Translations under genes and position numbers: made by a program | Shown here: positions 2,147 through 39,864 of the stretch, in pieces | How positions within the stretch are numbered: the stretch's first letter is position 1 | Layout of the letters: every line of letters starts with the position of its first letter | Source of the DNA: Candidatus Cybelea sp. | Lineage (GTDB): Bacteria; Vulcanimicrobiota; Vulcanimicrobiia; Vulcanimicrobiales; Vulcanimicrobiaceae | NCBI GenBank assembly: GCA_035695445.1 | Contig: DASRSI010000009.1 | Location: 9,974 to 73,973, forward strand | Direction: 5' to 3' | Length of the DNA stretch: 64,000 bases | Notes under the pieces: model-generated | The model's input: only the letters and a program-made list of their open reading frames with translations | What the model was told of the DNA's origin: nothing | Databases searched by the model: none

Positions 2147-3487
2147 ATGCGGCTTTTAGCGCGCGCCGTGCTCGTCGTCGCGGTGATGCTCCCCATCTTG
2201 CTCGACGGCTGCAGCAGCGGGGGCGGCGGCTCGTCCCCGTCGGGGCCGCTGCCCCCGCCGCCTCCGGCGAAAGCGGGTAAATACTTCACCCACATCGTGA
2301 TCATCATTCAAGAGAACCGTACGTTCGATAACCTCTTCGCAACGTTTCCCGGCGCCGACGGAGCGACGCGCGGCAAGACGAGTAAAGGCGGAACGATCCC
2401 CCTGCGTAAGGCCAATCTCGATAGCACGATCTCGCCGAACAACGGCTATCTCTTCTGGAAGCGAGACTGGAATAACGGGAAGATGAACGGCTTCGACACC
2501 GTTCCGGTCGGAAAATCTCCCGGGACGTACGTCTACCAGTACGTCGATCCCAATCAGATTCGCCCGTATTGGGATCTCGCGGAGCGGTACGTACTCGCCG
2601 ATCACACCTTTCAAACGCAAGGCAGCGGAAGCTTTACCGCGCATCAAGATCTCATTCGCGGCGGTACTGAGGTCAACACCGACAAGAGCCTGATCGATTT
2701 TCCCAGCTCCGCGCCGTGGGGATGCGATTCGCCGGCGGGAACGCGAACCTCGCTGATTACCGAAAGCAATCAATACGAGCATCTTCAGGGACCGTTTCCG
2801 TGCCTCACCTATCGTACGCTGCGCGATTTGCTCGATGCCAATGGCGTTTCGTGGCGATACTATACGCCGTCGATCGGCGGCTTTGCCGGAAACCTTTGGA
2901 ACGCTTTCGACTCAATCGCGGCGGTGCGTCAAGGACCGGAGTGGACGACGAACGTCATCTCGCCGGAGACCGACGTTTTTACCGATATCAGCCGCAATAC
3001 GTTGCCCGCCATCTCGTGGGTGATTCCGGACCTTCGCAACTCCGATCACCCCGGCACGAACTTCGATAGCGGCCCCTCATGGGTCGCCGGCGTCGTCAAT
3101 GCGATCGGAGAGAGTCCCGCGTGGAAGACGACCGCAATCCTCATCGTGTGGGACGATTGGGGCGGATGGTACGATCACGTTCCGCCGCCGGGCAAGCGCC
3201 AGTACGGCGGCTTGGGCTTTCGATTTCCGTTCATCACCGTCGCTCCGTATGCCAAGGCCGGCTACATCGCACATGCCGAGTACCAAACGGGTAGCATCGT
3301 GCGTTTCGTCGAGGACAATTGGGATCTCGGGCGCCTCGGTACGACCGACGAAGAATCCGCCAGCTTTGTCAACGACTTTTTCGATTTCACTCAGAACCCG
3401 CGCAAGTACGTGCCGATTCAAGCACCGTACTCCAAAACGTATTTGCTGAAGCAGCCTCCGTCGAACGAGCCGGTCGACACGGAATAA
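2147..3487 (+). CDS. Phosphoesterase-family (AcpA acid phosphatase / phospholipase C-like) lipoprotein, clade A copy A1
   Basis: ATG at 2147; lipobox LLDGC. Motifs [52 protein letters not shown] and GLGFRFP. C-terminal tail PVDTE. Confidence 0.9.
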   Translation: MRLLARAVLVVAVMLPILLDGCSSGGGGSSPSGPLPPPPPAKAGKYFTHIVIIIQENRTFDNLFATFPGADGATRGKTSKGGTIPLRKANLDSTISPNNGYLFWKRDWNNGKMNGFDTVPVGKSPGTYVYQYVDPNQIRPYWDLAERYVLADHTFQTQGSGSFTAHQDLIRGGTEVNTDKSLIDFPSSAPWGCDSPAGTRTSLITESNQYEHLQGPFPCLTYRTLRDLLDANGVSWRYYTPSIGGFAGNLWNAFDSIAAVRQGPEWTTNVISPETDVFTDISRNTLPAISWVIPDLRNSDHPGTNFDSGPSWVAGVVNAIGESPAWKTTAILIVWDDWGGWYDHVPPPGKRQYGGLGFRFPFITVAPYAKAGYIAHAEYQTGSIVRFVEDNWDLGRLGTTDEESASFVNDFFDFTQNPRKYVPIQAPYSKTYLLKQPPSNEPVDTE

Positions 3488-3489
3488 AA

Positions 3490-4833
3490 GTGACCAAGAT
3501 TAGTGACGCATATCAACCATTGGCCCGCACGCGATCCGTCAAATGGAAGGCCGTAGCAGATGGCGAACCCTCGCCAGACTTCGGTATGCATATTTTAGAA
3601 AGATCCTGGGGGGCAATTGCCCCGAAAACGCGAGTACAGAGCGTGCCCGTCGTCCTCTCCGACTTCGAGCGCGTCGACGTCACTGCGCCCGTCGCGCAAG
3701 ACGAGCTCAAAGAGATTCAAGCGCACTTTATGACGATCGCGCAGGGCGCTGCGCGCGGACTCACCGACCCGAGCGAGCGCGAACAGCTCGCGACCAATCT
3801 GCGAGAACGCATGGCGCGCTACGGAACTTCATCGGAATATATTGCGCAACGCCAGGTCAGCGTGCTCACCTCGTGTTTCGTCAAAGCCGATGCCGATAAT
3901 TCCTCGGAGCTGGTGCAGCGTTACGGCAACCTTCGCGCGCCGACCGGCGAAGCGCTCGACGAACGGATGACGCTCTTCGAAGAAGTTGCCTGCGACGTCT
4001 TCGAGCGCGTCTATCGCGATACCGAAGCACCGGCACCCGACGACATCGTGCACGTCAGCTGCTCGGGCTACGTGTCGCCGAGCCCCGTCCAAACGTTTCT
4101 CTCGCGGCGCGGATGGCTCAACGTGGGCGTCACGCACTCGTATCACATGGGATGCTACGGTGCGTTTCCCGCGATCCGTACGGCCGTCGGTCTGGTCGGA
4201 TCGTCCTACGTCTCGCTCACAAAGCAGAAGCGCCGCGTCGATCTGGTTCACACCGAGTTTCTCTCGCTCCACTTCGACCTGCTCGGCGACGAGCCCGATA
4301 ACTTCGTTACCTCGACGCTCTTTGCCGACGGTTTCATCAAGTATTCGGCCTATCCCGAAGCATCGTTTCCGAAGCAGGGCCGCAGCGGGCTCAAGGTACT
4401 CGCGATTGACGAACATATTCTTCCCGACTCGCTGCCCGAGATGACGCTGCGGCCCGGTCCGCTGCAGTTCGACATGTCGCTCTCTAAGCGCGTGCCGTTC
4501 ATGATCCGCGACTCGGTCGCCGATTTCGTCCACGCGCTCTGCGCGCAGACCGGTCTCGATTTCGAGCGCGAGAAGGAGTCGATGATCTTTGCAATCCACC
4601 CCGGCGGTCCGGCGATCCTCAACCAGATCCGCAACCGCCTCGGCATCGAGGAGTCGCAGGTCGCGCTGAGCCGCCGCGTGCTCCACGAGCATGGCAACAT
4701 GGCCTCGGCCACCGCGCCCCACATCTGGCAGCACATCGTGGAATCGCCCTCGATTCCCACCGGGTCGAAGGTGCTGAGCATGGCATTCGGACCCGGCTTA
4801 ACGGTTATAGGCGCACTCTTCGAGAAAGTGTAG
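3490..4833 (+). CDS. Type III polyketide synthase (chalcone/stilbene synthase superfamily)
   Basis: C-terminal signatures AIHPGGPAILNQI, HEHGNMASATAPHI and FGPGLTVIGALFEKV; candidate active-site Cys in VSCSGYVSPSP. The track ORF start (3319) lies inside the upstream gene. The in-frame GTG at 3490 sits 3 nt after the upstream stop. ATG 3586 is an alternative start. Confidence 0.82.
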   Translation: MTKISDAYQPLARTRSVKWKAVADGEPSPDFGMHILERSWGAIAPKTRVQSVPVVLSDFERVDVTAPVAQDELKEIQAHFMTIAQGAARGLTDPSEREQLATNLRERMARYGTSSEYIAQRQVSVLTSCFVKADADNSSELVQRYGNLRAPTGEALDERMTLFEEVACDVFERVYRDTEAPAPDDIVHVSCSGYVSPSPVQTFLSRRGWLNVGVTHSYHMGCYGAFPAIRTAVGLVGSSYVSLTKQKRRVDLVHTEFLSLHFDLLGDEPDNFVTSTLFADGFIKYSAYPEASFPKQGRSGLKVLAIDEHILPDSLPEMTLRPGPLQFDMSLSKRVPFMIRDSVADFVHALCAQTGLDFEREKESMIFAIHPGGPAILNQIRNRLGIEESQVALSRRVLHEHGNMASATAPHIWQHIVESPSIPTGSKVLSMAFGPGLTVIGALFEKV

Positions 4834-4839: not shown

Positions 4840-6006
4840 ATGGCTACCACCGAGACCAAGACACCGCAGAAATTCTCCGTGCCGAGCCCTTTCTATTGGA
4901 GCGTGCGGACCGTCCATGCGGCCGCTCCGCTCTTCGTTGGGCTTGGAAATCTCGAATCGCTGATGCTCTCGCGCAGCATAGCAGCGCAACAAGTCGATCG
5001 CCCGGTCTATATCTGCGGACTTCCGCGGGCCGGCACCACGATCACGCTGCAGATGCTCAGCGAGCATCCCGACGTCGCGACCCACAAGTACGCCGATTTT
5101 CTCATGCCCTACATGCCGTGGGTCTGGAACAACGTCTTCCCGCGCATTCCGGTCGACGCGATGCGCAAGCCGGTTCCGCGCATTCACCGCGATCGCATCG
5201 AGGTGACGCGCGACAGCGCCGAGATGGGCGAGGAGATCTTATGGGAACACTTCTTCCCCTTCGTCCACGACGAATCGAAGTATAGCGTCCTCGACGGTTC
5301 GGTCTCCAATCCGAGCTTCGAACGTTTTTACAGCGAGCATTTGCGCAAGCTCGCGCTGGTGCGCGGGCGCGACCGCTACGTCAGCAAAGCGATTCTCTGC
5401 GTTTTGCGCATGCAGTACCTGCGCAAGATTTTTCCCGACGCGCGGTTCCTGCTCTACGTCCGCAACCCCATCGATCACGTCGCGTCGCTGATCAAACAGG
5501 ACCGCATTTGGGCCGAGCTCGAGCGCAGCGATCCGCGCCAGATCGAGATCATCGAGCTTACCGGACACCACGAGTTCGGCACGCGTCAGGTGATGGCGAA
5601 CGTGGGCGACCCGCAGCGGCTCGCCGAAATTCGCCGGCTCTTCGACGACGGCAAGTGGGCGCAGTCACGTGCGCGTTATTGGGCCTACGTCTACGGCTTT
5701 GTTGCCAAACAACTCGATTCGGATCCCGAGCTCGCGCGCAGCGTCTGCGTCGTGCGCTACGAGGATCTCTGTAACGACTCCCCGGGGACGATCGATCGCA
5801 TTCTCGCGCATACCGGCCTCGATGCGCCGAGCTTCGCCGCGGCGAAGGCAAAATACAGCGAGAAGCTTTCGTTCCCGGACTACTACAAACCGACGTTCAC
5901 CGCCGACGTCATGGATGAGATCGTCGCATGCACCTCCGAAACGGCCAAACGATTCGATTACGATGTTCCCGCCATCGCCCAGAGAGTCGGCGTTGTTCCG
6001 ACGTGA
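4840..6006 (+). CDS. PAPS-dependent sulfotransferase family protein
   Basis: 5'-PSB loop-like motif GLPRAGTTITLQML near the N-terminus. 388 aa. Starts 6 nt after the PKS stop. Confidence 0.75.
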   Translation: MATTETKTPQKFSVPSPFYWSVRTVHAAAPLFVGLGNLESLMLSRSIAAQQVDRPVYICGLPRAGTTITLQMLSEHPDVATHKYADFLMPYMPWVWNNVFPRIPVDAMRKPVPRIHRDRIEVTRDSAEMGEEILWEHFFPFVHDESKYSVLDGSVSNPSFERFYSEHLRKLALVRGRDRYVSKAILCVLRMQYLRKIFPDARFLLYVRNPIDHVASLIKQDRIWAELERSDPRQIEIIELTGHHEFGTRQVMANVGDPQRLAEIRRLFDDGKWAQSRARYWAYVYGFVAKQLDSDPELARSVCVVRYEDLCNDSPGTIDRILAHTGLDAPSFAAAKAKYSEKLSFPDYYKPTFTADVMDEIVACTSETAKRFDYDVPAIAQRVGVVPT

Positions 6007-7424
6007 CGCTTCGCGCCCGCGCTCTCTGCTCTTGGGCGATTGCCGCTAGCTTCGCGCTGACCGCCTGCGGCGGCGGATCGAACGGCCTCGCGCCCGTCTC
6101 GAGTCCCGGCAGCCGCCAACAGGGCTCCGGAAGCTCGCCGATCCAGCACGTCATCCTGATCGTTCAGGAGAATCGCACCTTCAACAATCTCTTTGCCGGC
6201 TTTCCGGGTGCGACCAGCACGATGACCGGCGCAGAACTGGTCAAACAAGGCAGCAAATACGTCGAGCAGCCGCTCGCGCTGAGCGAAGCCAAGCTCTACG
6301 ACAAGACGAACATCGCGCATCTCTACAAAGCATTTTTGACCGGCTGGCAGAAGGGCGCGATGGACGGTTTCAGTCTCATCAAATTCACGCGCAGCGGCCA
6401 GCCCGAAGGCAAGACGCCGTATCAATACGTCAATCCCGCGCAGATCGTACCCTACCGCACGATGGCGGCGCAGTGGGGTCTTGCAGACGAAATGTTCCAG
6501 ACTCAGGGCAGCGACAGTTTCACCGCCCACCAGGATTTGATTCGCGGAGGCACCTTCGTCAGTCCGGACTCGAGCATGATCGATCCGCCAACGGCGCCTT
6601 ACACGTGGGGTTGCGATTCGAACCCCGGCACGAAGACGACCATCATCACGAAGAAGTTGCAGCTCAAGGTCGACAAAGGTCCCTTCCCCTGCTCGAACGC
6701 GTTTCCGAATTACGGCGGCAAAGGTTACGACACGCTGCGCGACTTGCTCGACGCGAAGTCGCTCTCGTGGAAATACTATACGCCGACCTTCGAACGGAAG
6801 GCCCCCAACGGCATGTGGAATGCCTTCGACGTGATCGCGCCGGTGCGGTACGGCCCGGAGTGGACCGATAATATCTCCTCGCCCGAAACGACGATCCTCA
6901 GTGACATCAGTAACAACAAGCTGCCGGCAATGTCGTGGGTGATTCCCGACGCCGCGAACTCCGATCACCCCGGCTACGGCGGCAAGGATACCGGACCGTC
7001 GTGGGTCGCGGATATCGTCAATGCGATCGGTGGAAGTTCGTATTGGAATACGACCGCGGTCATCGTCGTCTGGGATGATTGGGGCGGTTTTTACGATCCG
7101 GTTCCTCCGCCGCCGAGGGATCATCAAGGTGGTCCCGGTTTCCGCGTTCCGATGATCGTCGTCTCGCCCTACGTCATTGCGGGAAGCGGCAGCCAAAACG
7201 GGTATGTCTCCCATACGGTCTATGGGTTCGGCAGCATCTTACGATTCATCGAAGACAACTTTGGGCTCGGCCGGCTCGGAACGACCGATTCCACCTGTAC
7301 CAGCATCGGCGACATGTTCGACCTCAGCCAATCGCCGCGCAGCTTCCAAACGATTCCAACGAAGTACTCGAAGCAGTACTTCTTACGCGAGAGGCCGTCG
7401 AACTTGCCGGTCGATACGGAGTAG
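6003..7424 (+). CDS. Phosphoesterase-family lipoprotein, clade A copy A2
   Basis: In-frame GTG at 6003 overlaps the sulfotransferase stop (GTGA) and gives the signal VTLRARALCSWAIAASFALTAC. Motifs [52 protein letters not shown] and GPGFRVP. Tail PVDTE. Confidence 0.9.
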   Translation: MTLRARALCSWAIAASFALTACGGGSNGLAPVSSPGSRQQGSGSSPIQHVILIVQENRTFNNLFAGFPGATSTMTGAELVKQGSKYVEQPLALSEAKLYDKTNIAHLYKAFLTGWQKGAMDGFSLIKFTRSGQPEGKTPYQYVNPAQIVPYRTMAAQWGLADEMFQTQGSDSFTAHQDLIRGGTFVSPDSSMIDPPTAPYTWGCDSNPGTKTTIITKKLQLKVDKGPFPCSNAFPNYGGKGYDTLRDLLDAKSLSWKYYTPTFERKAPNGMWNAFDVIAPVRYGPEWTDNISSPETTILSDISNNKLPAMSWVIPDAANSDHPGYGGKDTGPSWVADIVNAIGGSSYWNTTAVIVVWDDWGGFYDPVPPPPRDHQGGPGFRVPMIVVSPYVIAGSGSQNGYVSHTVYGFGSILRFIEDNFGLGRLGTTDSTCTSIGDMFDLSQSPRSFQTIPTKYSKQYFLRERPSNLPVDTE

Positions 7425-8841
7425 CACCGCGGTCCGTCTAGCGTATCTTCCGACGCTCGCGGCAATTCTTGCCCTCGCCGGCTGCGGTGGCAGAGGATTC
7501 TCAGCGCTCCTTCCGCCGTCGGGAGCGAACGAGCCGCCGGCGAGTTCGGCACCAAAGATCAAGCACATCGTGCTGATGATTCAGGAGAATCGCACCTTCA
7601 ACAATCTCTTCGCCGGTTTTCCGAAGGCGAAAAGTTCGTTGACGGGTGTCGAGCTCGTCAAACAAGGCGGCCATCGCGTCAAAAAGACGGTCAATCTCAC
7701 CAAAGCCAATCTCACGTTCAAGGGTAACCTCGTCCATCTCTACGCCGCCTATCAAATCGCGTGGCAGAAGGGCGACATGGACGGCTTCAACCTGAACAAA
7801 TACGTGGTGAACGGCCAGCCGGAAGGATTAGCGCCGTATCAATACGTCGATCCTTCGCAGATTCAGCCCTACCGCACGCTGGCGGCGCAGTGGGGACTCG
7901 CCGATGAGATGTTTCAGACGCAGGGCAGCGACAGTTTCACCGCCCATCAAGACTTGATTCGCGGCGGCACGTTTATCAACCCGACCGAAAGCCTGATCGA
8001 TCCGCCGACCTCACCCGACGCGTGGGGTTGCGATTCGTCACAGGGTTCGAAGACGCAGCTGATTACGACCCAACTCAAATATCTGAAAAACGCCGGGCCA
8101 TTTCCGTGCACGAAAGACTTTCCGGATTACACAACCTACGGCTACAAGACGCTGCGCGACCTGCTCGATGCAAAATCGCTCTCGTGGAAGTACTACGCGC
8201 CGCCGTTCGCCCATTCGCAGCCGAACGGCCTGTGGAATGCCTTCGATCTTGTCGCGGCGGTTCGTTATGGCAGCGAATGGACGACGAATATTTCCTCGCC
8301 CGAGACCAACGTGCTATCAGACGTCCAGCACGGGAAGTTGCCGGCACTGTCGTGGGTGATTCCCGACGCCGCAAACTCCGACCATCCGGGTTACGCGGCG
8401 CACGACACCGGACCGTCGTGGATCGCGAGCGTCGTCAACGCGATCGGCCAGAGCAAATACTGGGACTCGACTGCGGTCATCGTCGTGTGGGACGACTGGG
8501 GCGGCTTCTACGATCCGGTCGCGCCGCCGCCGCAGGACGATCAAGGCGGCCCCGGCTTCCGCGTCGCTATGATCGTCGCGTCGCCCTACGTGCGACTCGG
8601 AAGCAACGGCAAACCGGGCTACGTCTCGCATACCCTCTACTCGTTCGGCAGCATCGTCCGCTTCATCGAAGATACGTTCAACCTGGGAAGGCTGGGAACG
8701 ACCGACTCCACCTGCACGAGTATCGGCAATATGTTCGATTTCACGCAATCTCCGCGCACGTTCACAAAGATTCAAGCGCGCTACACGCGCTCGTTCTTCC
8801 TCCACCAACGCCCCTCGGGCCTACCGGTCGACACCGACTAG
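7414..8841 (+). CDS. Phosphoesterase-family lipoprotein, clade A copy A3 (start uncertain)
   Basis: Motifs [52 protein letters not shown]; tail PVDTD. Lipobox LALAGC at about 7480. No ATG/GTG/TTG lies between the A2 stop (7424) and the lipobox. The nearest plausible initiator is ATA 7414. The track start 7177 and TTG 7261 lie deep inside A2. Confidence 0.85.
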   Translation: MRSSTAVRLAYLPTLAAILALAGCGGRGFSALLPPSGANEPPASSAPKIKHIVLMIQENRTFNNLFAGFPKAKSSLTGVELVKQGGHRVKKTVNLTKANLTFKGNLVHLYAAYQIAWQKGDMDGFNLNKYVVNGQPEGLAPYQYVDPSQIQPYRTLAAQWGLADEMFQTQGSDSFTAHQDLIRGGTFINPTESLIDPPTSPDAWGCDSSQGSKTQLITTQLKYLKNAGPFPCTKDFPDYTTYGYKTLRDLLDAKSLSWKYYAPPFAHSQPNGLWNAFDLVAAVRYGSEWTTNISSPETNVLSDVQHGKLPALSWVIPDAANSDHPGYAAHDTGPSWIASVVNAIGQSKYWDSTAVIVVWDDWGGFYDPVAPPPQDDQGGPGFRVAMIVASPYVRLGSNGKPGYVSHTLYSFGSIVRFIEDTFNLGRLGTTDSTCTSIGNMFDFTQSPRTFTKIQARYTRSFFLHQRPSGLPVDTD

Positions 8842-8972: not shown

Positions 8973-10295
8973 TTACTGTTCGTCGGGGATTTGGCCGTCG
9001 TTGGGTTGATTGAGGAAGAAACGTGCATCAAGCGGCGCCGCGATCGGCACGAAGCGACGCGGCTTCCGATTGAAGTCGAGGCAATCTTTTGCGGGTGAGG
9101 TGGCGCGCGAATCGGCGGCCGAGAGACGATCGAGCCCGAAGAGATCTTCGGCATAGCGCAGCACGCTCGCCGTCTCGTATTGCACGTGCGAAACGTAATC
9201 GCTCTTCGCATACGGCGAAATGACCATCAACGGCACACGAAAACCTAAACCGTCGTAATCCTTGAAGGGCGGTGGAACCGGATCGTAGAGGCCGCCCCAG
9301 TCGTCCCACTGCACGAAAATGACCGTCGAATCCCAGAACTGGCTCTCGCCGACGGCGTTGACCACGGAGGCGACCCACGAGGGACCATCGCCGCCGCCGC
9401 AATCGGTGTGATCGGAATCGGGACAGAGCGGCGTAACCCAGGTAAAGGCTGCGAGCTTGCCCTTTGCAACGTCGCTGAGAAACCGGCGCTGCGGCGTGAT
9501 GATGTTTCTCTTCCAGTCGGGACCGTAAAAAATATGCTTGACCGCCTGATAGCCCGACCAGAGTCCGCTATACGGGCGATTGTATTTGGCGGTATAGAAG
9601 CGCCACTTTAATCCGGCGTGGTCGAGCTCGTCGCCGAAGGTCGTGTAATTGAAGCACGGGCGCTGCGGCGTTGAATAGGTTCGTTTCAACGTGATGGTCG
9701 CTTCCGGATCGCCCTTTCCGCCCTCGCAACCCCACCAGCCATCCGGCACGTCGACGCTGGAGTGCGCTTGCGCCGCGATGATGTATTGATGCGCCACGAA
9801 ACTCTCGTCGAGCTGCGACTGGAACATGCGATCGGCGAGAACCCACTCGTGCGCCATATCCCAGTACGGCTTCGATTCCGAATGGGGAACGAAGGTGTAC
9901 TCGCGGTTTTCAGGACCGCCGATGCCGCCTTCGCGGTTGAAGCCGTCCATCCGGCACTTCGTCCCCGGCAGCCGCCCGGTTCCGTTGCAGGCCGCGAACA
10001 TGTCTTTCGCCCCGTGGCCGATCTCGAAGATGGTCTTGAGGCTCACTGCTTTGAGCGTAATCGTCTTACCGTAAGAATCCTTGCCTTTTGACACGGTATA
10101 GGCGCCCGGATAACCCTGGAACATGTCGTTAAAGCTGCGGTTCTCTTGCACGACCCAAACGACGTGACGAATCTTTCCGGCACCCATGGCATTGAGCGCC
10201 TGCAACGGCGTTCCGCCGCTCATGTAGGGCACGACGGTGCGTCCGCAAGCCGTCAGCGCGAACGCGGCCGCAAGCGCAAAGATGCGCTTACTCAT
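8973..10295 (-). CDS. Phosphoesterase-family lipoprotein, clade B copy B1
   Basis: Internal ATG at 10295 gives MSKRIFALAAAFALTAC and overlaps the B2 stop by 8 nt (ATGAGTAA). Motifs [59 protein letters not shown] and GLGFRVP. Tail IPDEQ. Confidence 0.9.
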   Translation of the reverse strand: MSKRIFALAAAFALTACGRTVVPYMSGGTPLQALNAMGAGKIRHVVWVVQENRSFNDMFQGYPGAYTVSKGKDSYGKTITLKAVSLKTIFEIGHGAKDMFAACNGTGRLPGTKCRMDGFNREGGIGGPENREYTFVPHSESKPYWDMAHEWVLADRMFQSQLDESFVAHQYIIAAQAHSSVDVPDGWWGCEGGKGDPEATITLKRTYSTPQRPCFNYTTFGDELDHAGLKWRFYTAKYNRPYSGLWSGYQAVKHIFYGPDWKRNIITPQRRFLSDVAKGKLAAFTWVTPLCPDSDHTDCGGGDGPSWVASVVNAVGESQFWDSTVIFVQWDDWGGLYDPVPPPFKDYDGLGFRVPLMVISPYAKSDYVSHVQYETASVLRYAEDLFGLDRLSAADSRATSPAKDCLDFNRKPRRFVPIAAPLDARFFLNQPNDGQIPDEQ

Positions 10296-14323: not shown

Positions 14324-14336
14324 AAAGGAGCAGTGA

Positions 14337-15530: not shown

Positions 15531-15558
15531 CGCCCGAACGGCCGCAGCGACACAAAAT

Positions 15559-15597
15559 GAGAGGCGGCGCATTGCGCCGCCTCTCGTCATTCTTCGT
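15559..15597 (+). terminator. Rho-independent terminator-like hairpin after S53 copy 2
   Basis: GAGAGGCGGCGC-ATT-GCGCCGCCTCTC, a 12-bp perfect stem, followed by the T-rich GTCATTCTTCGT. Confidence 0.6.
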
Positions 15598-15683
15598 GGG
15601 GAATGCGCACGTCGGGCGCTGCAGGCGGATTCTCCTCGTTGCCCAAATTCCCCATCCTCAAAGGCATTAGCAAAGGAGCATAT

Positions 15684-16883: not shown

Positions 16884-16903
16884 CGGGTACCGCAATACGA
16901 ACC

Positions 16904-27117: not shown

Positions 27118-27170
27118 CGAGAAGGTTATGCGCGGGAGGCTGTGCCTGCCCCTGTCGGGAAACCTCAAGC
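27118..27170. promoter_or_regulatory. Conserved bidirectional control region between divergent B5 and C5
   Basis: GCGCGGGAGGCTGTGCCTGCCCCTGTCGGGAAAC, homologous to 24285-24336. Confidence 0.4.
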
Positions 27171-32698: not shown

Positions 32699-33256
32699 CT
32701 ATGATCCGGTTCCGGCTTCGACGATGACGCCGGTCGGCTCAACGAAGGAATCGCCCTTGATCGAACCGCTCTTTACGACGGCCGTCCAGGTCGCGTCGTA
32801 TTGGGGCGTGCCCGTACCGGGGTGCACGCTGGCCTTCGTGGTGACGGTGTCATAGATGAGACCGACCTGCGTCGCCGGCGGGCCGAACTTCGATTTAACG
32901 CGTCCGTTGCAACCGGTCGGACCATCGGTCTGAGCGGCGTTGGGGGCGCAAGCCGTGGTCTTCCAGTTGACCTTACCAGCGTAGAGACCGCTGGTGCAGT
33001 TTCCGCTCGTGCTGAGGCACCAGCCGAACTCTTCGGTCGACCCCGGGGTCGTGATGTAGCAGATGTAGTACGGCGAGGTGCAAGTTTGCGGCTTGCGGGC
33101 GCCGACATTGACGAGATGGTAGCCATGGTGGGCCATCGGCGCCGAAGCGGACGAGCCGCCCGGGATCGCCGAGGAGCTTCCGGCACCGCCGGAACATGCT
33201 GCAAGCATGAGGCTAGCTGCGAGCGCAGTGCTCGCACATAGAAGGGTGAAACGCAC
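32699..33256 (-). CDS. Cys-rich hypothetical lipoprotein
   Basis: AAGGAG precedes the GTG at 33256. Lipobox LMLAAC followed by a Gly/Ser linker. The mature part has several Cys: CTSPYYICY, WCLSTSGNC, TTAC, PTGC. No family recognised. Confidence 0.55.
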   Translation of the reverse strand: MRFTLLCASTALAASLMLAACSGGAGSSSAIPGGSSASAPMAHHGYHLVNVGARKPQTCTSPYYICYITTPGSTEEFGWCLSTSGNCTSGLYAGKVNWKTTACAPNAAQTDGPTGCNGRVKSKFGPPATQVGLIYDTVTTKASVHPGTGTPQYDATWTAVVKSGSIKGDSFVEPTGVIVEAGTGS

Positions 33257-33365
33257 GTTTGGACTCCTTCAATAGCTAGGTGTTAAAGCTGCGCCCGTCT
33301 TAAAGGCGCTGCTTGGGCCGGGTTGCAATCCAGGCCGTGATTCTCCTGCTAAAAGCCGTCCCTCG

Positions 33366-34442
33366 TCACTTTTTTTTCACGACATTTGCCGCAAAGGCCC
33401 CAGCCTCCACGTCGTACTCCTGATTGAGCCCCTTGTGGAAGCTGTAGAGGTACGTGACGCTCGTCGGCTTATACGAATAGACGTCCACTTGACCGTAGGC
33501 AATGTCGCCGATCGCTAGCTCGTCACCTTTGGAGTTGAGGTTCCCATAAAAGGAATCGCCATTCAGCGGGAAGGGTCCGCCGACCACCTTGCAGCCCGGG
33601 TTACACCCGTCGTAGACCCAGATCGCGGGGGTCTCCCAGTCGACCGAGATCAGGTGACCGCCGTGGTCGCGCATGAGGCCGCCATAAAAGGCGTTCTTCC
33701 AGCCCGTTGCAGCCTGCCCCGAGCCCTTGCAGGCTTTAAAGAACGTCAAGGTCGCCTTGCTGAACGAGGGATTGTCTTCGGAGGAAATCCAGCAGTCGCC
33801 GGTCGTTTTCGCGTAGGCAACGCCGCCGCCGTAGTAGCCGATATGCGAGCTGTGCAGCACCCGCGTGCACCCGCCTTTGAGCGTGCAGACGGCGATATTT
33901 CCCACCTTCTTGCTGGCGCTCTCCTCGATGTTTCCAACCACGATCGTTCCGGTCGTGGCGTCGGCCGCAACGGCGTCGCTCGCCTGACCGTATGAATCGG
34001 TGAACTTGCCGACCAGCGTCTTGCAGGCGTGCGGGCCTTTGTAGACGCTCACCGCTGCCGGATAGCCATTCGGAACGACCAGATCGCCGAGATTGTCAAC
34101 GCTGAAACCGTTGACGAACGAGGCCGCGACATGGCAGATCGCCTTCTCGTCTTTCTTATTCGGAGAGACGTAGCCGAGCAGATCGGGACCGTCAAACTGC
34201 GCGGCGTAGAGGCCAACCATCTTCTTCTTATGCTTTTTATCGTCGTAGACGAATGGTTGCGAGGGCTCCGTGCGCAGCATGAACGGATGGATCCATGGCG
34301 GCACGACGCTGACGGGAGCGTCGGCGGAAGTTCCGGCGGATGAGGCTGCTGCGTAGAGTGCCGGCGCGAGATTGCGAGCACCACAGCCCGCGAGGAAAAG
34401 GGAAACGAGCGCTACACAGAGCGCTTTCGTATCGGGGCGCAT
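33366..34442 (-). CDS. Hypothetical lipoprotein, beta-propeller-like (paralog family with 34524-35537 and 55436-56515)
   Basis: Lipobox LFLAGC. Repeated short beta-strand and Gly-turn pattern (DNLGDLVVPNGYPAAVSVY, TTGTIVVGNIEE). No catalytic motif recognised. Confidence 0.55.
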   Translation of the reverse strand: MRPDTKALCVALVSLFLAGCGARNLAPALYAAASSAGTSADAPVSVVPPWIHPFMLRTEPSQPFVYDDKKHKKKMVGLYAAQFDGPDLLGYVSPNKKDEKAICHVAASFVNGFSVDNLGDLVVPNGYPAAVSVYKGPHACKTLVGKFTDSYGQASDAVAADATTGTIVVGNIEESASKKVGNIAVCTLKGGCTRVLHSSHIGYYGGGVAYAKTTGDCWISSEDNPSFSKATLTFFKACKGSGQAATGWKNAFYGGLMRDHGGHLISVDWETPAIWVYDGCNPGCKVVGGPFPLNGDSFYGNLNSKGDELAIGDIAYGQVDVYSYKPTSVTYLYSFHKGLNQEYDVEAGAFAANVVKKK

Positions 34443-34523
34443 GACTTCGAGTCTCCTTGCAAATTAGTAGTTCCTAGTACGGAGGACTTCCCTCTCAATG
34501 CGACTTTGGAGGGATCGATTCCT

Positions 34524-35537
34524 TCAGGACCCGCCGGCGCTGCTGACGACGGCTCCAACCGGCTGGGTGAAGCCGGTCACCCGCGCAGTAGGCCTCCCGC
34601 CGGCCGGATAGGGCCAGAGATCGGCGCTGCTCCCCTTATGGGAGCAGTTCGCGTAATCGCCCCCCGCGACGCGGGCCGCCGAAATCCACGCTTGCGCGAC
34701 GTCGCAGGCTCCGCCCAATGGCGTGGCGCCGGCGATTCGGGCGGTCTTCCCGCTGACGGTGAGGCGGTAGAGACAAGAGCTCGCGGTGTTTTTGCAACGT
34801 TGGTCGCCGAGCACGAGTTGTGTGCCGCTCCATGCAACCGTTCCCGGAAAGTAGATCGTGCCGCCGGAGAGCGTGACGAGCGCGATTGAATGCGCACCGC
34901 GCGCCAGCACGCCGAGTGAGAACGCGCTCTGGGAGCTTCGCGCGCTGACGTAAAGATTGCCCTGCGAATCGTAGGCGGCGAAATAGAACGAGACGAGATT
35001 GGTGTTTCCGTAGACGGCCGGCGTTCCACGCGCGCGCTTATAGACCAGCACGTTGGCGTTGCCGCTGAAGTTCTCAATGTTGGTCACCGCGAGATTGCCG
35101 CTCTTCGGATCGACGGCGCAACCCGCGGGATAGCCGAGCGCGTCGCTCACTCGCGCGATCTCCTTCGTTCCGCCGTGCGCGTACTCGCGTAGGTCGGTGC
35201 CCTCGCTGTTCGCAATCCAGATGTTGCCGGCTCTATCCACGCACTCGCCCTGCGGCTGGACGAATCCGGTCAGCTTTCCCGCCGGCTTGAGCGCCGGATA
35301 GGTGAAGACGCGAACGTCGAAGTTTCCCAAATCGGAGACGTAGAGCAGCGATCCCGATGCCGCGCCCGGCTCGATGAACGATGCACCGGTGTCGGGACGT
35401 CCTTCGACTACGCTCCCGGTGGTCGCTACGCTCAGGATGACACTACTATGGGAAGCGGCAGGCGGCTCGCCGTCGCACGCGGTGAGCGCGACGAACGCGG
35501 GCGCGAAGAGCGCGAACACCAAAATGCGGCGCATCAC
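34524..35537 (-). CDS. Hypothetical lipoprotein, NHL/SMP-30-like beta-propeller (REP-like element in the linker)
   Basis: GTG 35537 / ATG 35534; the ATG overlaps the A4 stop (TGATG). Lipobox VALTAC. Repeats of the type GNIWIANSEG, GNLAVTNIEN, GNLYVSARS. Confidence 0.6.
   Translation of the reverse strand: MMRRILVFALFAPAFVALTACDGEPPAASHSSVILSVATTGSVVEGRPDTGASFIEPGAASGSLLYVSDLGNFDVRVFTYPALKPAGKLTGFVQPQGECVDRAGNIWIANSEGTDLREYAHGGTKEIARVSDALGYPAGCAVDPKSGNLAVTNIENFSGNANVLVYKRARGTPAVYGNTNLVSFYFAAYDSQGNLYVSARSSQSAFSLGVLARGAHSIALVTLSGGTIYFPGTVAWSGTQLVLGDQRCKNTASSCLYRLTVSGKTARIAGATPLGGACDVAQAWISAARVAGGDYANCSHKGSSADLWPYPAGGRPTARVTGFTQPVGAVVSSAGGS
35400..35442. repeat. REP/MITE-like element, copy e (inside the lipoprotein linker)
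   Basis: TCCTTCGACTACGCTCCCGGTGGTCGCTACGCTCAGGATGACA. Read on the minus strand as SSVILSVATTGSVVEG. Confidence 0.7.
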
Positions 35538-36913
35538 ATATCCGTGTCAACGGGCAAGTACGATGGCTTCGCGTGTAAGAAGTGCGCGCGCGAGTACTTC
35601 GCCTTGATCGGCTGGAAGAGGATCGGCTTTTGCGAGTAATTGAAGCAGTCGGCGATGCTCGTCGCGCGGCTATCGGTACGCTTGAGCGACTTGAGACCAA
35701 AATTTTCCTCGATGTATTTCAGAACGCTGCCAAACTCGTACTGCGTCGTCGAAATGGTCCCGGCTTTTGCGTAGGGCGAGACGATGATGGCTGGAACGCG
35801 GAAGCCGAGGCCGCCATATCCCTTCTGCGGCGGTGCGTCGTTATCGTATAAGCCGCCCCAATCGTCCCAAAGAATGACGATCGCCGTCGAGTTCCAGTAC
35901 GAGCTCTCGCCGATTGCGTTCACCACGCTCGCTACCCACGACGGACCGGTGTCGGAGCTCGTTCCCGGATGATCGGAATCGTTCTCATCGGGAATCACCC
36001 ACGAAACCTCTTGGAGGTGCCCGGTGAGATCGCTGAAGATCTTTTTCTGCGAGACGATGTGGCCGTCGCTCCACTCCGAGCCTTCGCGCACGGCTTTGAT
36101 GGCGTCGAACGCGTCGAGCAGCTTCCCGTTTGTCGAACAGCACTCCGGGGGAACGTAATAACGCCACGTGACGCCCTTGGCGTCGAGCCGGTCGCGCAGT
36201 GTCGGATAGGTGAGGCACGGATACGGGCCTTGAGCCGGCTGAAAGACGTTATCTTTCGTGATCAGCGACGTGCGCGTGCCCTTCGGCGCGTCGCAGCCCC
36301 AGGGCGGCGCACTCGGCAGATCGATAAGTGCCTCGTTCGGCGAGATCACGGTGTCGCCGGCAATCAGATCCTGGTGCGCGGTGAAACTGCTGCTCCCTTG
36401 CGTCGGAAACATGTGCTCGGCGAGCACGTATTGTTTCGCCATCTGCCAGTAGGGCCGAATGTCGGACGGTTTGGTGTACTGATAGGGAAAGGTGCATTCG
36501 GGAGTGGAGTGGTCTCCGAAGATGATCAAATCGAATCCGTCCATGGAACCGCCGTCGCGAGCCTTGTTGTAGCCCTCGTAGGCATGGATCAGATCGTGCG
36601 GCGACCCTTTGTAGAGTGTGATGAGCCCGCTCTCTTTGAGTTTGATCGTCGATTTGGTCTTGATCTTGCAGGCCGGATTGGGCAGTACGACGCCGGTGGT
36701 CGACCCGTCGGCGCCGGGAAAGGTAGCGAAGAAGTCGTTGAACGTGCGGTTCTCTTGAATGATGACGACCACGTGCTCGATTGGGGAGGTGGCGTTTCTG
36801 CGCGTTAGGGCGCTCTGTGACGCTCCACTGGTTCGGAGACTCGGCGTGACGCTGTTGGCGTTGCACCCGGCCACGAGGACGAGTGCGAACGCGGCGAGCC
36901 TAGCCCTCGGCAA
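35534..36913 (-). CDS. Phosphoesterase-family lipoprotein, clade A copy A4
   Basis: TTG at 36913 overlaps the end of the MBL gene by 14 nt. Lipobox LVLVAGC. Motifs [51 protein letters not shown] and GLGFRVP. Tail PVDTDM. Confidence 0.9.
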   Translation of the reverse strand: MPRARLAAFALVLVAGCNANSVTPSLRTSGASQSALTRRNATSPIEHVVVIIQENRTFNDFFATFPGADGSTTGVVLPNPACKIKTKSTIKLKESGLITLYKGSPHDLIHAYEGYNKARDGGSMDGFDLIIFGDHSTPECTFPYQYTKPSDIRPYWQMAKQYVLAEHMFPTQGSSSFTAHQDLIAGDTVISPNEALIDLPSAPPWGCDAPKGTRTSLITKDNVFQPAQGPYPCLTYPTLRDRLDAKGVTWRYYVPPECCSTNGKLLDAFDAIKAVREGSEWSDGHIVSQKKIFSDLTGHLQEVSWVIPDENDSDHPGTSSDTGPSWVASVVNAIGESSYWNSTAIVILWDDWGGLYDNDAPPQKGYGGLGFRVPAIIVSPYAKAGTISTTQYEFGSVLKYIEENFGLKSLKRTDSRATSIADCFNYSQKPILFQPIKAKYSRAHFLHAKPSYLPVDTDM

Positions 36914-38309
36914 TGCTGGTCACCGCCGTCACCAGCGAATCTTTTCCCCTCGTTGCGGTGCGGACGGCCATTCGGACGTAATCGATGACTTCGGGCAGGC
37001 GTCGCGCGTAGCCGCTCAGGAATCGCCACGAGAAGAGGCGCTTCGGCGAGAGATACTCGGCTTCGTACAGTAAGAGCAGATTCGTCAGGATAAAGTGGCG
37101 CATCGCTCGGCCACGGTTGATGTGAACGCGCCAGCGCTTCGAGATGTCGACGTTGGTGAAGACGTCGTTGCGCAGCGAGCCCGAGAGAACCGCGGGGCTC
37201 ACCGAAATGACGCTGTCGTAACGCTGCGGCATCCCTTCGCTGCGCTCGATCGCCGCCTTACCGAAGTCGACCGTCCAATACTCCGGCTGCTCCTTCTCGA
37301 TGGTGAAGACCCAGCGCGTGTTGCGGATGAGCGGGCGCACCAGGCTCGTCGCGCGGAAAAACTTCGCGAAGTATTTCGAAAAATCGTCGAAGGCGATCTC
37401 TTTGGTCGCTTCGGAGCGATAGGTCTTTTCGAGCCGCTCGCCGACCTCTTGCGCGCGCTGTTCGGCATAGGCGACCATATCGTCGACGCCGTTATCGGTC
37501 AGGTCGAATCCCGAAGCCGACGACCAGCGGCTGCCGACCGGCATGATCGTCAGCGACGTCCCCGGCGTACGCGAGGCATTCGACTCGAAGTACTCCTTCA
37601 TTTGAGCGGCGGAGACCAGGAAACGATTCTCGTCGCGCACCTCGCGGTGTAGATGGCAGATGCCGCTCGCAAACGGAATCGCATAGCGGGGCCGCAGTTG
37701 CTGCGCGGCGGCAACGAAAGCTTCCATATAGGTGCGTCCGTCGACGGGAAGCCGGTCGGCGGGATCTTCAAAGGTGTAGCGGGTGGGGTACGACCATGCC
37801 GGCGAGTGGCTGCGCAGCATGAAATCGGGCTTCGGATACTTCGCGCGGAAGGCGCGCCAGGTTGACGGCAACGGCTTGGCGTCGTTGAGATCAACGAGCA
37901 CCGTGCCGCCCGATTCGACGACCGCGACGCTATCGTCTTGAAAACTGATCTGATAACTCGTCAGCGAGAAATCCTCGCCGAGGGCAAGACGCTCGCCGTG
38001 TTTGAGCTCGACGACTTTTTCAAAACCGATCTCGGTCAACTGCTGCTTCAGACCGGAGATCGGGAACTTCGGAACGACGGCCGTCGTGGTCTTTCCGAAC
38101 TTCCGCAACGTCTTGGGATCGAAGTGATCGAAGTGCCAGTGCGTGATGTAAATGTAGTCCGCGCTAAAAATCTCGTCGGTGAAGATCGGCGGCGGCGCGT
38201 GCCACCAAGCCGACCAATAGGTTGGTTCGTTCAACCAGGGATCGATAACGAGTCGCTTGCCGGCGGCCTTCACTTCGAGGCAGGCGTGACTTACGATGCG
38301 GAACTCCAT
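36900..38309 (-). CDS. MBL-fold metallo-hydrolase with a long C-terminal extension
   Basis: The N-terminal roughly 230 aa carries the metallo-beta-lactamase-fold motif YIYITHWHFDHFD (HxHxDH). There is no signal peptide. The C-terminal roughly 230 aa belongs to no family I recognise. Confidence 0.7.
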   Translation of the reverse strand: MEFRIVSHACLEVKAAGKRLVIDPWLNEPTYWSAWWHAPPPIFTDEIFSADYIYITHWHFDHFDPKTLRKFGKTTTAVVPKFPISGLKQQLTEIGFEKVVELKHGERLALGEDFSLTSYQISFQDDSVAVVESGGTVLVDLNDAKPLPSTWRAFRAKYPKPDFMLRSHSPAWSYPTRYTFEDPADRLPVDGRTYMEAFVAAAQQLRPRYAIPFASGICHLHREVRDENRFLVSAAQMKEYFESNASRTPGTSLTIMPVGSRWSSASGFDLTDNGVDDMVAYAEQRAQEVGERLEKTYRSEATKEIAFDDFSKYFAKFFRATSLVRPLIRNTRWVFTIEKEQPEYWTVDFGKAAIERSEGMPQRYDSVISVSPAVLSGSLRNDVFTNVDISKRWRVHINRGRAMRHFILTNLLLLYEAEYLSPKRLFSWRFLSGYARRLPEVIDYVRMAVRTATRGKDSLVTAVTSIAEG

Positions 38310-38337: not shown

Positions 38338-38443
38338 CCGTCCTTCGCGCTAACAAGTTCCTTAACGCCTGCGCGAAGCGGTCCTTCGACTACGCGCCCT
38401 TCGTCTCGCTGCGCTCGCTTAGGGCGCTACGCTCAGGATGACA
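38338..38443. repeat. REP/MITE-like element, copy f (intergenic, between the A5 stop and the MBL start)
   Basis: ...GTCCTTCGACTACGCGCCCTTCGTCTCGCTGCGCTCGCTTAGGGCGCTACGCTCAGGATGACA, with an extra CCTTCGCGC unit at the left end. Confidence 0.7.
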
Positions 38444-38454
38444 ACAGTTAACGT

Positions 38455-39864
38455 TTATTCGGTGTCGACGGGAAGATACGATGGCCGCTGGTGCAAAAAG
38501 TAAGCGCGCGAGTACTTTGTGGTAATTGTCGTAAAGGCGCGCGGCGGCTGCGTGAAGTCGAAGCAGTCGATAATACTGGCCGCGCGTTTGTCGGTCGTTC
38601 CCAATCGCCCCAGCCCCCAGATGTTTTCGACGAACTTGAGAATGCTGCCGAACTCGTACTGCGTGTGTGAAACATAGCCGGGCACGCTCGGAGTGGCCTC
38701 ACGCGCGTACGGTGAAACGACAATCATCGGAACGCGAAATCCCAAGCCTCCCCATTCGTCGAAGAAGGGCGGCGGTTCGTGATCGTACATGCCTCCCCAA
38801 TCGTCCCAGACCACGATGATGGCGCTCGTATTCCAATAGTCGCTCTTGCCGATCGCGTTGACGATGCTCGCAACCCACGACGGTCCGGTATCGGAGTGAT
38901 TTCCGGGATGATCGGAGTTCGGGTTATCGGGCACGATCCAAGAGACCGCGGGCAGCTTTCTGGCGGCAACGTCGCTGAAGAAAAGGTTCGACTCGGCAAT
39001 GTTGGTCGTCCATTCCGGACCTTCGCGTACGGCTTTGATGGCGTCGAACGCATTCCAGTATCTACCGGTGCTGGCTTCCTTGGGCGAGTAGTATTTCCAA
39101 CTCAGCCTGTTGGCATCGAGCAAATCGCGCAGCGTTAGATAGTCGAAGCACGGGAACGGCCCGCGCCGGTATTCGAAGTGGATCTTCTTATTGGGAGTGG
39201 CGTGGAGCAGCGACGTGTCGGTGCCCGTCGGCGCGTCGCAGCCCCACGGCTGCGCAGTCGGAAAGTCGACGATGCTCTTCGTGTCGCGGGGCCGGTTGAT
39301 GATCGTCGCTCCGGCGATCAGATCTTGATGTGCGGTGAAACTGCCGCTGCCTTGCGTCTGAAAGAGATGATCGGCGAGCACGTATTCTTTGGCGAGATCC
39401 CAGTCGGGTGCGAGCTGGGCCGGATCGACGTATTGATAGACCTTTGTGCCGGCCGGCCCGCGGCATTTTTTTCCGGCGCCCTCGAGACCGAAACCATCCA
39501 TCTTTCCGCCGTCGTAATCGAGCCTGACGGCGCGATAGGAGTGGCCGAAATCGCATGGCCCGACGAGGTCGACTTTTTGCAGCGGTACGTAGGTGTCGCC
39601 CGATCCCGACGAATTCTTCATGTAGCCAAATGTCGTTCCATCGGCATTCGGAAACGTCGCAAAAAAATTATCGAAGCTGCGATTCTCCTGAATGACGATC
39701 ACCACGTGCGAGATCGGAACGCTGCCTGCAGGCGGACGCCCAGCGGCGCGCAGCGACGCGTCAACGGAGGGCGACGTTCGCAGAACGGACGCCCCGCACG
39801 AGGTAAGCGCGAGCGCCGCGATACAATAAGCGGCGGCGCGTGCAACCCCGCGCCGCAATCTCAC
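38455..39864 (-). CDS. Phosphoesterase-family lipoprotein, clade A copy A5
   Basis: In-frame GTG at 39864 overlaps the DUF4097 stop (GTGA) and gives VRLRRGVARAAAYCIAALALTSC. Motifs [51 protein letters not shown]. Tail PVDTE. The upstream 640 nt of the track ORF is an Arg-rich out-of-frame shadow of the DUF4097 gene. Confidence 0.9.
   Translation of the reverse strand: MRLRRGVARAAAYCIAALALTSCGASVLRTSPSVDASLRAAGRPPAGSVPISHVVIVIQENRSFDNFFATFPNADGTTFGYMKNSSGSGDTYVPLQKVDLVGPCDFGHSYRAVRLDYDGGKMDGFGLEGAGKKCRGPAGTKVYQYVDPAQLAPDWDLAKEYVLADHLFQTQGSGSFTAHQDLIAGATIINRPRDTKSIVDFPTAQPWGCDAPTGTDTSLLHATPNKKIHFEYRRGPFPCFDYLTLRDLLDANRLSWKYYSPKEASTGRYWNAFDAIKAVREGPEWTTNIAESNLFFSDVAARKLPAVSWIVPDNPNSDHPGNHSDTGPSWVASIVNAIGKSDYWNTSAIIVVWDDWGGMYDHEPPPFFDEWGGLGFRVPMIVVSPYAREATPSVPGYVSHTQYEFGSILKFVENIWGLGRLGTTDKRAASIIDCFDFTQPPRAFTTITTKYSRAYFLHQRPSYLPVDTE

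Follow-up and report, generated by a model that had tools for sequence, protein, structure and literature searches.

The array of PF04185 genes

The DNA considered here, called the window, is a stretch of 64,000 nucleotides from Candidatus Cybelea sp. (contig DASRSI010000009.1). Its interval 2147-39864 (37,718 bp) contains exactly 18 full-length open reading frames (ORFs) of the Pfam phosphoesterase family PF04185, designated c01 to c18. A six-frame motif scan gave 18 matches to WDDWGG, each within an ORF where QENR(S/T)F is likewise present; the motifs SFxAHQ, xSDH and GxGxRxP were found in nearly all 18. The profile of the 18 copies, compared with all ORFs of the window of at least 250 aa, again returned exactly 18 matches. 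With the 18 genes masked, no extra or degraded copy and no gene fragment was found in the window by tblastn, and no PF04185 copy lies upstream of c01. An earlier reading of this DNA without database searches (the sequence-only reading) had reported 18 paralogs of intact length with one motif set; the scan and the profile bear this out, and the 'about two thirds' of the interval that it ascribed to this single family is 65.5% when measured (24,714 of 37,718 bp). The shared motif set holds in general, with single-copy deviations: SFISHQ in c09, TSDH in c09 and c11, GPGFR in c02 and c03, SLGFR in c12 and c15.

The three clades proposed from a motif in the middle of the proteins were reproduced by the matrix of pairwise identities: clade A (five copies: c01, c02, c03, c17, c18), clade B (seven copies: c04, c05, c06, c10, c12, c15, c16) and clade C (six copies: c07, c08, c09, c11, c13, c14). 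Amino-acid identity is 49-65% within clade A, 60-72% within clade B, 55-63% within clade C and 34-53% between clades; it ranges from 34 to 73% over the whole set, no pair exceeding 73%. The DNA identity between copies is 60-80%, and no pair is above about 80% over 300 nt. Because the copies are only 60-80% identical in DNA, assembler confusion and repeat collapse or expansion are implausible.

Gene starts were set from the position of the lipobox cysteine. All 18 proteins match PF04185 and no other Pfam family. The matches begin at profile position 1 or 2 and end at 355 or 356 of 356; they score 143-195 bits (cutoff 23), with expectation (E) values of 2e-41 to 2e-57. Loci of related genomes are designated below by L numbers.

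Clade A includes the first and the last gene of the array. c01 (2147..3487, + strand; 446 aa; E 8.8e-57) has an ATG start and the atypical lipobox LLDGC; its orthologues (67-73% identity) adjoin Sua5 in L004, L018, L021, L026 and L027. c02 (6003..7424, + strand; 473 aa; E 1.4e-47) has a GTG start and the lipobox ALTAC; its orthologue in L009 is 76% identical, with a ratio of nonsynonymous to synonymous substitution rates (dN/dS) of 0.18. c03 (7426..8841, + strand; E 5e-49) is intact from the lipobox to the stop and lacks a canonical start. c17 (35534..36913, - strand; 459 aa; E 8e-51) adjoins a metallo-beta-lactamase-fold gene, an arrangement that is syntenic in L027. c18 (38455..39864, - strand; 469 aa; E 4.5e-57) has a GTG located 22 codons before its lipobox, ALTSC.

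The clade B genes are all on the - strand: c04 (8973..10295; 440 aa; lipobox ALTAC; E 3e-43; 77% identical to its L009 orthologue), c05 (10288..11616; 442 aa; E 1e-48; L009 orthologue 80% identical, dN/dS 0.095), c06 (11616..12962; 448 aa; E 2e-41; L009 orthologue 78% identical), c10 (22902..24284; 460 aa; E 8e-48; start set by alignment with c12), c12 (25750..27117; 455 aa; E 1e-50), c15 (29931..31265; 444 aa; E 2.8e-48) and c16 (31262..32599; 445 aa; E 5.7e-51). c12, the copy chosen for the structure model, is 100% identical to an NCBI protein of 'Candidatus Cybelea sp.'.

The clade C genes are all on the + strand: c07 (18063..19436; 457 aa; lipobox SITAC; E 2e-57), c08 (19426..20889; 487 aa; tether lengthened by repeats; E 8e-53), c09 (21545..22891; lipobox TLASC; no canonical start within 40 codons upstream; E 1e-47), c11 (24337..25749; 470 aa; lipobox ALNAC; divergent from c10 over 52 bp; E 5e-49), c13 (27171..28556; 461 aa; lipobox AANAC; divergent from c12 over 53 bp; E 9.5e-49) and c14 (28557..29894; 445 aa; E 1.3e-49).

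The earlier statement that no copy has an internal stop or frameshift stands as far as the ORFs are concerned, with the qualification that c03 and c09 have no canonical start before the signal peptide. No ATG, GTG or TTG is found for c03 between the stop of c02 and the lipobox Cys at 7483 (region 7414-7490). An ATG precedes this Cys by 20 codons in the L009 orthologue of c03; the JGI gene call places the start of c03 at 7576, past the signal peptide. In c09 (region 21520-21600), an in-frame ATT is present at 21533, and an ATG at 21525 is out of frame by one base and would enter the frame on removal of one base. These losses could correspond to a very recent inactivation, a sequencing error or a non-canonical start. 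Since both ORFs are otherwise intact and the dN/dS of c03 relative to the L009 orthologue is 0.17, any inactivation would be very recent, if it is not a sequencing error or a non-canonical start. Judged from these start regions, c03 and c09 may fail to be made as lipoproteins.

Family assignment, active site and predicted structure

The best PDB match of the 18-copy profile is Francisella AcpA (2D1G; E 6e-38 over nearly the whole chain), followed by several phospholipases C (PLCs). In AcpA, E43, N44, D386 and D387 are metal ligands, S175 is the nucleophile, and a role is also described for H350 (PMC6635428). These six residues align with E62, N63, S176, H310, D346 and D347 of the array proteins, which are invariant in all 18 copies and in an alignment of 67 sequences. 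AcpA binds its substrate with four histidines, H106, H287, H288 and H350. An equivalent of AcpA H106 is found in 17 of the 18 copies (Asn in c01). The positions of AcpA H287 and H288 are occupied in the array copies by non-conserved residues other than His. The copies also share two cysteines that never vary.

The AlphaFold2 model of mature c12 has a mean predicted local distance difference test (pLDDT) score of 84.6 and a predicted template modelling (TM) score, pTM, of 0.89; it is disordered at residues 1-20 (the tether) and 422-431 (the tail). In a Foldseek search with this model, the eleven best matches were all PF04185 structures (TM 0.64-0.74; E 1e-21 to 1e-24; about 20% identity). They include a fungal single-domain non-specific PLC, a Streptomyces glycerophosphoethanolamine phosphodiesterase, NPC4, AcpA, PlcN and PlcH.

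One representative per clade was compared with the two curated bacterial models of the family. The scores are 141-142 bits for TIGR03397 (acid_phos_Burk; cutoff 362.75) and 104-122 bits for TIGR03396 (phosphocholine-specific PLC; cutoff 580.25). The DUF756 domain is absent from all 18 proteins in the Pfam search, as the sequence-only reading had expected. Its assignment to the AcpA/PLC family is thus upheld by the match to PF04185 only and by the aligned Ser nucleophile. Its term 'AcpA-like' is appropriate for size and not for membership, given the score of 141 bits against the TIGR03397 cutoff of 362.75 and the lack of His287/His288. The small size of the proteins, which it had contrasted with classical PLCs, carries no weight against PLC activity: the structure closest to the model is that of a fungal non-specific PLC with a single domain and 432 residues. 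The array proteins form a PF04185 lipoprotein subfamily of their own and, on residue content, are catalytically equipped. At E <=1e-30, c12 has matches in about 1,000 clusters of 50% identity.

Sixty-two alignment columns are invariant across the clades. Nine columns are fixed within clades and differ between them, four of which lie within 10 residues of the nucleophile (closeness to the active site being taken as distance along the sequence from the catalytic motifs). Around the nucleophile, clade A has GS.SFTAHQD and clades B and C have LD.SF.AHQY. This pattern fits a divergence of the substrate pocket, at least between clade A and clades B/C.

Export signal, tether and C-terminal tail

A Cys following a hydrophobic stretch is found in all 18 proteins, 32-44 residues ahead of QENR (68 in c08); of 205 homologues, nearly all likewise have this lipobox Cys. 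The lipobox, which the sequence-only reading had ascribed to every copy, conforms to the canonical [LVI][ASTVI][GAS]C in 15 of the 18; the other three (LLDGC in c01, ALNAC in c11, AANAC in c13) are atypical at position -2. No twin-arginine translocation (Tat) signal was recognised among the 18 proteins: an RR pair is present in c10, c13 and c18 only, and the full S/T-R-R-x-F-L-K context in none. The signals of the copies and of their homologues are thus of the lipoprotein type and not the Tat signals of classical PLCs, as had been stated. The envelope is taken to be diderm because the window encodes a TonB-dependent-receptor-like barrel and a BamB-like protein. The description of the enzymes as 'surface-tethered' holds for the lipoprotein-type signal; placing them at the surface rather than in the periplasm goes past the evidence.

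The C-termini are acidic: LPVDTE in clade A, PDYE or PDEQ in clade B and GDD in clade C (examples: 3470-3487, 25750-25770). One Asp of this tail is invariant in all 18 copies, and 199 of 208 homologues have an Asp among their last four residues. The tail is disordered in the AlphaFold2 model (pLDDT <50).

Conservation of the locus in related genomes

One genome per GTDB species was scanned; at least 599 related stretches were found, and the best 80 were compared. Almost all of these 80 belong to Eremiobacterota (Vulcanimicrobiota), a few to Acidobacteria. The 120 top database relatives of c12, all at least 70% identical to it, come from soil and peat metagenomes and from metagenome-assembled genomes (MAGs) of Eremiobacterota. 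The source of the window is a MAG of the genus 'Candidatus Cybelea' (Eremiobacterota, order Baltobacterales).

The number of motif matches per locus of about 20 kb is 10 in L009, 8 in L004, 8 in L018, 7 in L021 (a 'chromosome: 1' assembly) and 5-6 in several others. The conserved gene order begins with Sua5, c01, a type III polyketide synthase, a sulfotransferase, c02(/c03), clade B copies and S53-like peptidases. It ends with clade C copies, an NHL lipoprotein, the metallo-beta-lactamase-fold gene with c17, c18, DUF4097 and DUF4010. Between Sua5 and DUF4010, where the window has its 18 PF04185 genes, L026 has 3 and L027 has 5; at least 11 are present in L009, and L004, L018 and L021 have at least 8 each. 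Arrays that are not syntenic are also present (L012, L041, L057, L086), and further clades of the family exist that have no member in the window. Since related Eremiobacterota carry arrays at syntenic and at other loci, the expansion is a trait of the lineage, of which the window is the largest sampled example. The sequence-only reading, for which other genomes encode one to a handful of such genes, had made the array a singular oddity; this view is not retained. No published description of the expansion was found in the literature searched (the main paper on the phylum lies outside that search), and the enzymes are absent from the text of the Vulcanimicrobium paper.

In 17 of 18 cases, the sampled sequence most similar to a copy belongs to the locus of another species and not to the window. 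Copies c02 to c06 are 76-80% identical to their L009 matches, versus 65-73% to their best paralogue. The dN/dS (Nei-Gojobori) is 0.10-0.19 for orthologue-like pairs and 0.13-0.27 for closest paralogues, with a dS of 0.85-1.6, near saturation. From these comparisons, the duplications are old and every copy has been retained under purifying selection, which argues against a recent dosage amplification and against neutral decay. The claim that the array is kept under selection is therefore supported, both by dN/dS of 0.10-0.27 and by the orthologues in other species.

Over the 13,487 bp compared, the window is identical to a JGI contig of 124.6 kb; the same reads probably underlie the NCBI and JGI records, which are not independent.

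Some observations on other assemblies are added. In the long-read, non-syntenic array of L086 (3121-7181), five short PF04185 calls (84-297 aa) lie beside four intact ones; they are either decaying copies or the result of assembly indel errors. PF04185 genes 70-76% identical to Cybelea copies were found under the labels Babeliales (L008, L073), Nitrosotalea (P0017) and Dormibacteraeota (P0068), those of L008 in arrays, and PF04185 genes 44% identical were found under the label Alphaproteobacteria (L063). All five are probably mis-binned contigs of Eremiobacterota.

Comparison with known systems

AcpA (2D1G) resembles the array proteins by its single domain, similar size, Ser nucleophile, Glu-Asn/Asp-Asp ligands, equivalents of His106 and His350, and fold (TM 0.65-0.68). 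It differs from them by sequence (about 20% identity): the array proteins fall below the TIGR03397 cutoff, have no counterpart of His287/His288, have WDDWGG where AcpA has YDDSDG, and carry SFxAHQ (SFISHQ in c09) around the nucleophile. They also have a lipoprotein signal, a conserved acidic C-terminal tail and an organisation in tandem arrays of many copies.

RePLC from Rasamsonia emersonii (8K3G) and Arabidopsis NPC4 (8HAV/8HAW) are the top Foldseek matches (TM 0.69-0.74) and have a common catalytic scaffold with the array proteins; RePLC also has about 430 residues and no DUF756. Both are, however, eukaryotic and only 19-20% identical, and NPC4 has a Thr nucleophile and an extra C-terminal domain. 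PlcH and PlcN of Pseudomonas aeruginosa and PlcA-D of Mycobacterium tuberculosis belong to the same Pfam family and have the same fold. The array proteins differ from them by the absence of DUF756, scores below the TIGR03396 cutoff, a lipoprotein signal instead of a Tat signal, a Ser instead of a Thr nucleophile, and 18 copies instead of 1-4. The small tandem plcABC cluster of M. tuberculosis is a modest bacterial precedent for tandem copies.

The glycerophosphoethanolamine ethanolaminephosphodiesterase of Streptomyces sanglieri (8YK5) is the second-best PDB match, both in sequence (E 4.6e-34) and in structure; in contrast to the array proteins, it has 666 residues and extra domains and is not a lipoprotein (21% identity). 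This enzyme shows that PF04185 also includes head-group diesterases for soluble glycerophosphodiesters, plausible substrates in soil. No characterised member was found for the subfamily of the array, which lies outside both NCBIfam models (TIGR03397 and TIGR03396).

In Malassezia, PF04185 is the most expanded family and the one with the fastest turnover, with extensive gain and loss between species tied to niche adaptation (PMC4634964). The birth-and-death pattern is the same as in the array, but the Malassezia proteins are fungal, secreted, not lipoproteins, and linked to lipid dependence on skin (PMC4634964).

Neighbouring genes, intergenic blocks and repeats

An ArsC-like type III polyketide synthase (3586..4833, + strand; start according to the JGI gene call) has the Pfam domain Chal_sti_synt_C; its best PDB match is 3VS8/3VS9 (E 9e-92). 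These structures are those of Azotobacter vinelandii ArsC, which uses long-chain acyl starters and makes long-chain phenolic lipids (PMC6274091). The gene is 77-87% identical and found at the same position in L009, L004, L018, L021, L026 and L027. It is followed by a sulfotransferase gene (4840..6006, + strand; Sulfotransfer_3, E 2e-22) whose stop overlaps the GTG start of c02 and which keeps its place, at 80-91% identity, in seven related loci. With c01, c02 and c03, the two genes form a tightly spaced block of five genes on the same strand. The polyketide synthase/sulfotransferase block is kept at 77-91% identity in L004, L009, L018, L021, L026, L027 and L054, and these two genes are better conserved than the phosphoesterases in the related loci. 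The product of the two enzymes may be a sulfated phenolic lipid.

Four tandem genes of sedolisin/kumamolisin-like (S53) lipoprotein peptidases lie at 13160..18058 (+ strand; weak match to Peptidase_S8); the longest ORFs of these paralogs are 13160-14323, 14337-15530, 15603-16883 and 16850-18058. The match is to kumamolisin-As in the PDB (E 2e-12, residues 78-384). Lipoboxes are LAFAAC, LALAAC and LAVAAC. Homology starts about 55 residues past the lipobox Cys and corresponds in the alignment to the mature part of the enzyme, with no sign of a classical pro-domain. The first two genes are 86% identical over 300 nt and are the most similar duplicates of the window. One to four copies are found at the equivalent place in related loci. 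The S53 (sedolisin) family is known for acid-active peptidases.

Three other lipoprotein genes lie between c16 and c17 (32699..35537, - strand; lipobox-type N-termini in the translations): two encode lipoproteins of 185 aa and 358 aa without family match, and the third (34524-35537) a 337-aa NHL-repeat lipoprotein (E 7.6e-7). In L031, L036, L011 and L032, NHL-repeat lipoproteins are highly paralogous near PF04185 genes (up to six or seven per 21-kb locus), and the related genomes appear to carry several expanded families of lipoproteins. The metallo-beta-lactamase-fold protein (36900..38309, - strand; Lactamase_B_3 and Lactamase_B_2) is 75-76% identical and syntenic in L026 and L027.

Two divergent intergenic regions are paralogous: that of c10/c11 (24285..24336, 52 bp) and that of c12/c13 (27118..27170, 53 bp). 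Both contain TATGCG.GGGAGGCTG and CCCTGTCGGGAA as common blocks; combined, these form a pattern with two matches in the window and none in shuffled sequences. The blocks are better conserved than the flanking coding DNA and have no match in Rfam. This conservation suggests that c10/c11 and c12/c13 are a duplicated two-gene unit with a common putative regulatory element.

A hairpin-capable repeat, GTCATCCTGAGCGTAGCG...CGAAGGG, similar to repetitive extragenic palindromes and miniature inverted-repeat transposable elements (REP/MITE-like), is found at about 19520-19640, 8885-8934, 35424-35443 and 38425-38444. Two in-frame units at about 19520-19640 add about 35 residues to the tether of c08, and one unit is located in the N-terminal region of the NHL lipoprotein gene; the others are intergenic.

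Proposed function and alternative explanations

The interval is probably an enlarged hotspot locus encoding diversified, envelope-tethered phosphoesterases that scavenge phosphate and carbon in acidic, nutrient-poor soil. Each protein consists of a signal peptide with its lipobox Cys, a disordered tether (about 30 residues before QENR), a single alkaline-phosphatase-superfamily domain with the one-metal site (Glu-Asn, Asp-Asp), Ser nucleophile and His350 equivalent of AcpA, and, last, a short acidic tail. After export, it would be lipid-anchored in the diderm envelope. As in AcpA, the metal-activated Ser would attack the phosphate ester, giving a phospho-enzyme intermediate from which phosphate or a phosphorylated head group would be freed. 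The copies would divide between them a range of substrates, among which phosphomonoesters, glycerophosphodiesters and phospholipid head groups may figure. Together with the co-located S53 acid peptidase lipoproteins, they would allow an oligotroph of acidic soil or peat to draw phosphate and carbon out of dead cells and organic matter. The number of copies at the locus shifts between species by gene birth and death, each retained copy being under purifying selection.

Several points weigh against this proposal. No member of the subfamily has a known substrate, and the solved relatives include a monoesterase (AcpA), PLCs (PlcH, PlcN, NPC4, RePLC) and a glycerophosphoethanolamine phosphodiesterase, so that the predicted chemistry goes no further than hydrolysis of a phosphoester. 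The lack of a counterpart of AcpA His287/His288 implies that substrate binding is unlike that of AcpA. Clades B and C differ by two fixed columns only, so that a split of substrates between them is thinly supported. The proteins may face either the periplasm or the cell surface, and c03 and c09 have no usable start codon. The genomic context provides no link to phosphate regulation: when pstS, pstC, pstA and the PstS-like protein of the window were searched in the fetched loci, pst genes were found near an array in one genome only (L001-L003) among about 80 loci.

An unlikely alternative is that the enzymes act as PLCs on the phospholipids of the cell or of others, the co-transcribed polyketide synthase and sulfotransferase supplying phosphorus-free sulfated phenolic lipids, in a phosphate-sparing remodelling that would resemble both the phenolic lipids of Azotobacter cysts and the remodelling driven by NPC4 in phosphorus-starved plants. 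The tight same-strand block of c01, the two biosynthetic genes, c02 and c03, with its overlapping stop and start, its retention in seven related loci and the higher conservation of its biosynthetic genes (77-91%), is what such a unit would look like, and the nearest relative of the polyketide synthase is an A. vinelandii enzyme with long-chain acyl starters. The top structural match of the model is moreover a single-domain non-specific PLC, and the Malassezia expansion is described as a phospholipase family and discussed with lipase families (PMC4634964). This synteny is, however, confined to one genome family; acidobacterial homologues and many other arrays of Eremiobacterota have neither the polyketide synthase nor the sulfotransferase. 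Unlike these two cytoplasmic enzymes, the phosphoesterases are exported; they have the Ser nucleophile of AcpA and not the Thr of NPC4, and they contain no lipid-binding domain. Remodelling, moreover, does not obviously require 18 enzymes. Little credence is given to a composite version, in which c01, the polyketide synthase, the sulfotransferase and c02 would be a phosphorus-sparing envelope-remodelling unit, the extra copies would act on foreign lipids or organophosphates, and the acidic tail would be a new regulatory or sorting signal.

It is also rather improbable that the copies are redundant, whether as a dosage device or through neutral tandem birth and death at a recombination-prone locus. 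The variation from 3 to 18 copies at one locus between species, the segmental duplication indicated by the units c10/c11 and c12/c13 with their conserved intergenic DNA, the REP/MITE-like repeats throughout the array, the lost start codons of c03 and c09 and the fragmented copies of L086 would all be expected under redundancy. Nothing has been amplified recently, however, as no pair exceeds 73% protein identity and dS is near saturation; each copy has been under purifying selection since before the species split, and clade-specific substitutions cluster beside the nucleophile. A role as variable surface molecules (decoys for phages or predators, adhesins), for which enzymatic ancestry is irrelevant, is very doubtful. 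The numerous paralogues, the flexible tethers and the changing copy number of this lipoprotein family could suit such a role, but neither the metal ligands nor the nucleophile vary among the 18 copies and the homologues, 62 columns do not vary across the clades, and the gene-wide dN/dS of 0.10-0.27 gives no sign of an arms race. Non-enzymatic surface variation was rejected on the grounds of the invariant active site and low dN/dS. A mis-assembly inflating a few genes is scarcely credible, even for a metagenome-assembled contig whose NCBI and JGI records are not independent: the paralogues are too different in DNA (60-80%) to confuse an assembler, and the gene order is syntenic with long-read and 'chromosome: 1' assemblies of relatives (OY970207.1, CAWBUG010000002.1). 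An assembly artefact was rejected on these two grounds, DNA divergence of the copies and synteny.

For the fold, the chemistry and even the expansion of the family there are precedents, and no new mechanism is involved. The new elements are a lipoprotein subfamily outside both curated bacterial subfamilies, the tandem scale of 18 copies, a birth-and-death hotspot conserved across an uncultured phylum, and a conserved acidic tail. Acidic nutrient-poor soils, peat and polar deserts are rich in Eremiobacterota, of which only one species is known in culture. In members of Baltobacterales, a large part of a conserved region (here two thirds of 38 kb) is taken up by a single family of tethered phosphoesterases; several such arrays are present in related genomes, whose largest sampled assemblies are of 2.5-3.6 Mb. 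Copies that differ in substrate could provide a major unrecognised route of organic-phosphorus or phospholipid turnover in such soils, and would be a natural collection of enzyme specificities. Without such differences, the locus would be a clear bacterial case of long-term retention of tandem duplicates.

Other features of the window

No tRNA and no Rfam family was found in the window. A cluster located about 17 kb from the array (57312-63964, - strand) begins with the TonB-dependent-receptor-like barrel gene (61973-63964), followed by two ORFs without family match and by the gene of a PstS-like (PBP_like_2) periplasmic binding protein (57312-58754, - strand); DUF4397 and another unassigned ORF lie further on. 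This cluster may encode an uptake system.

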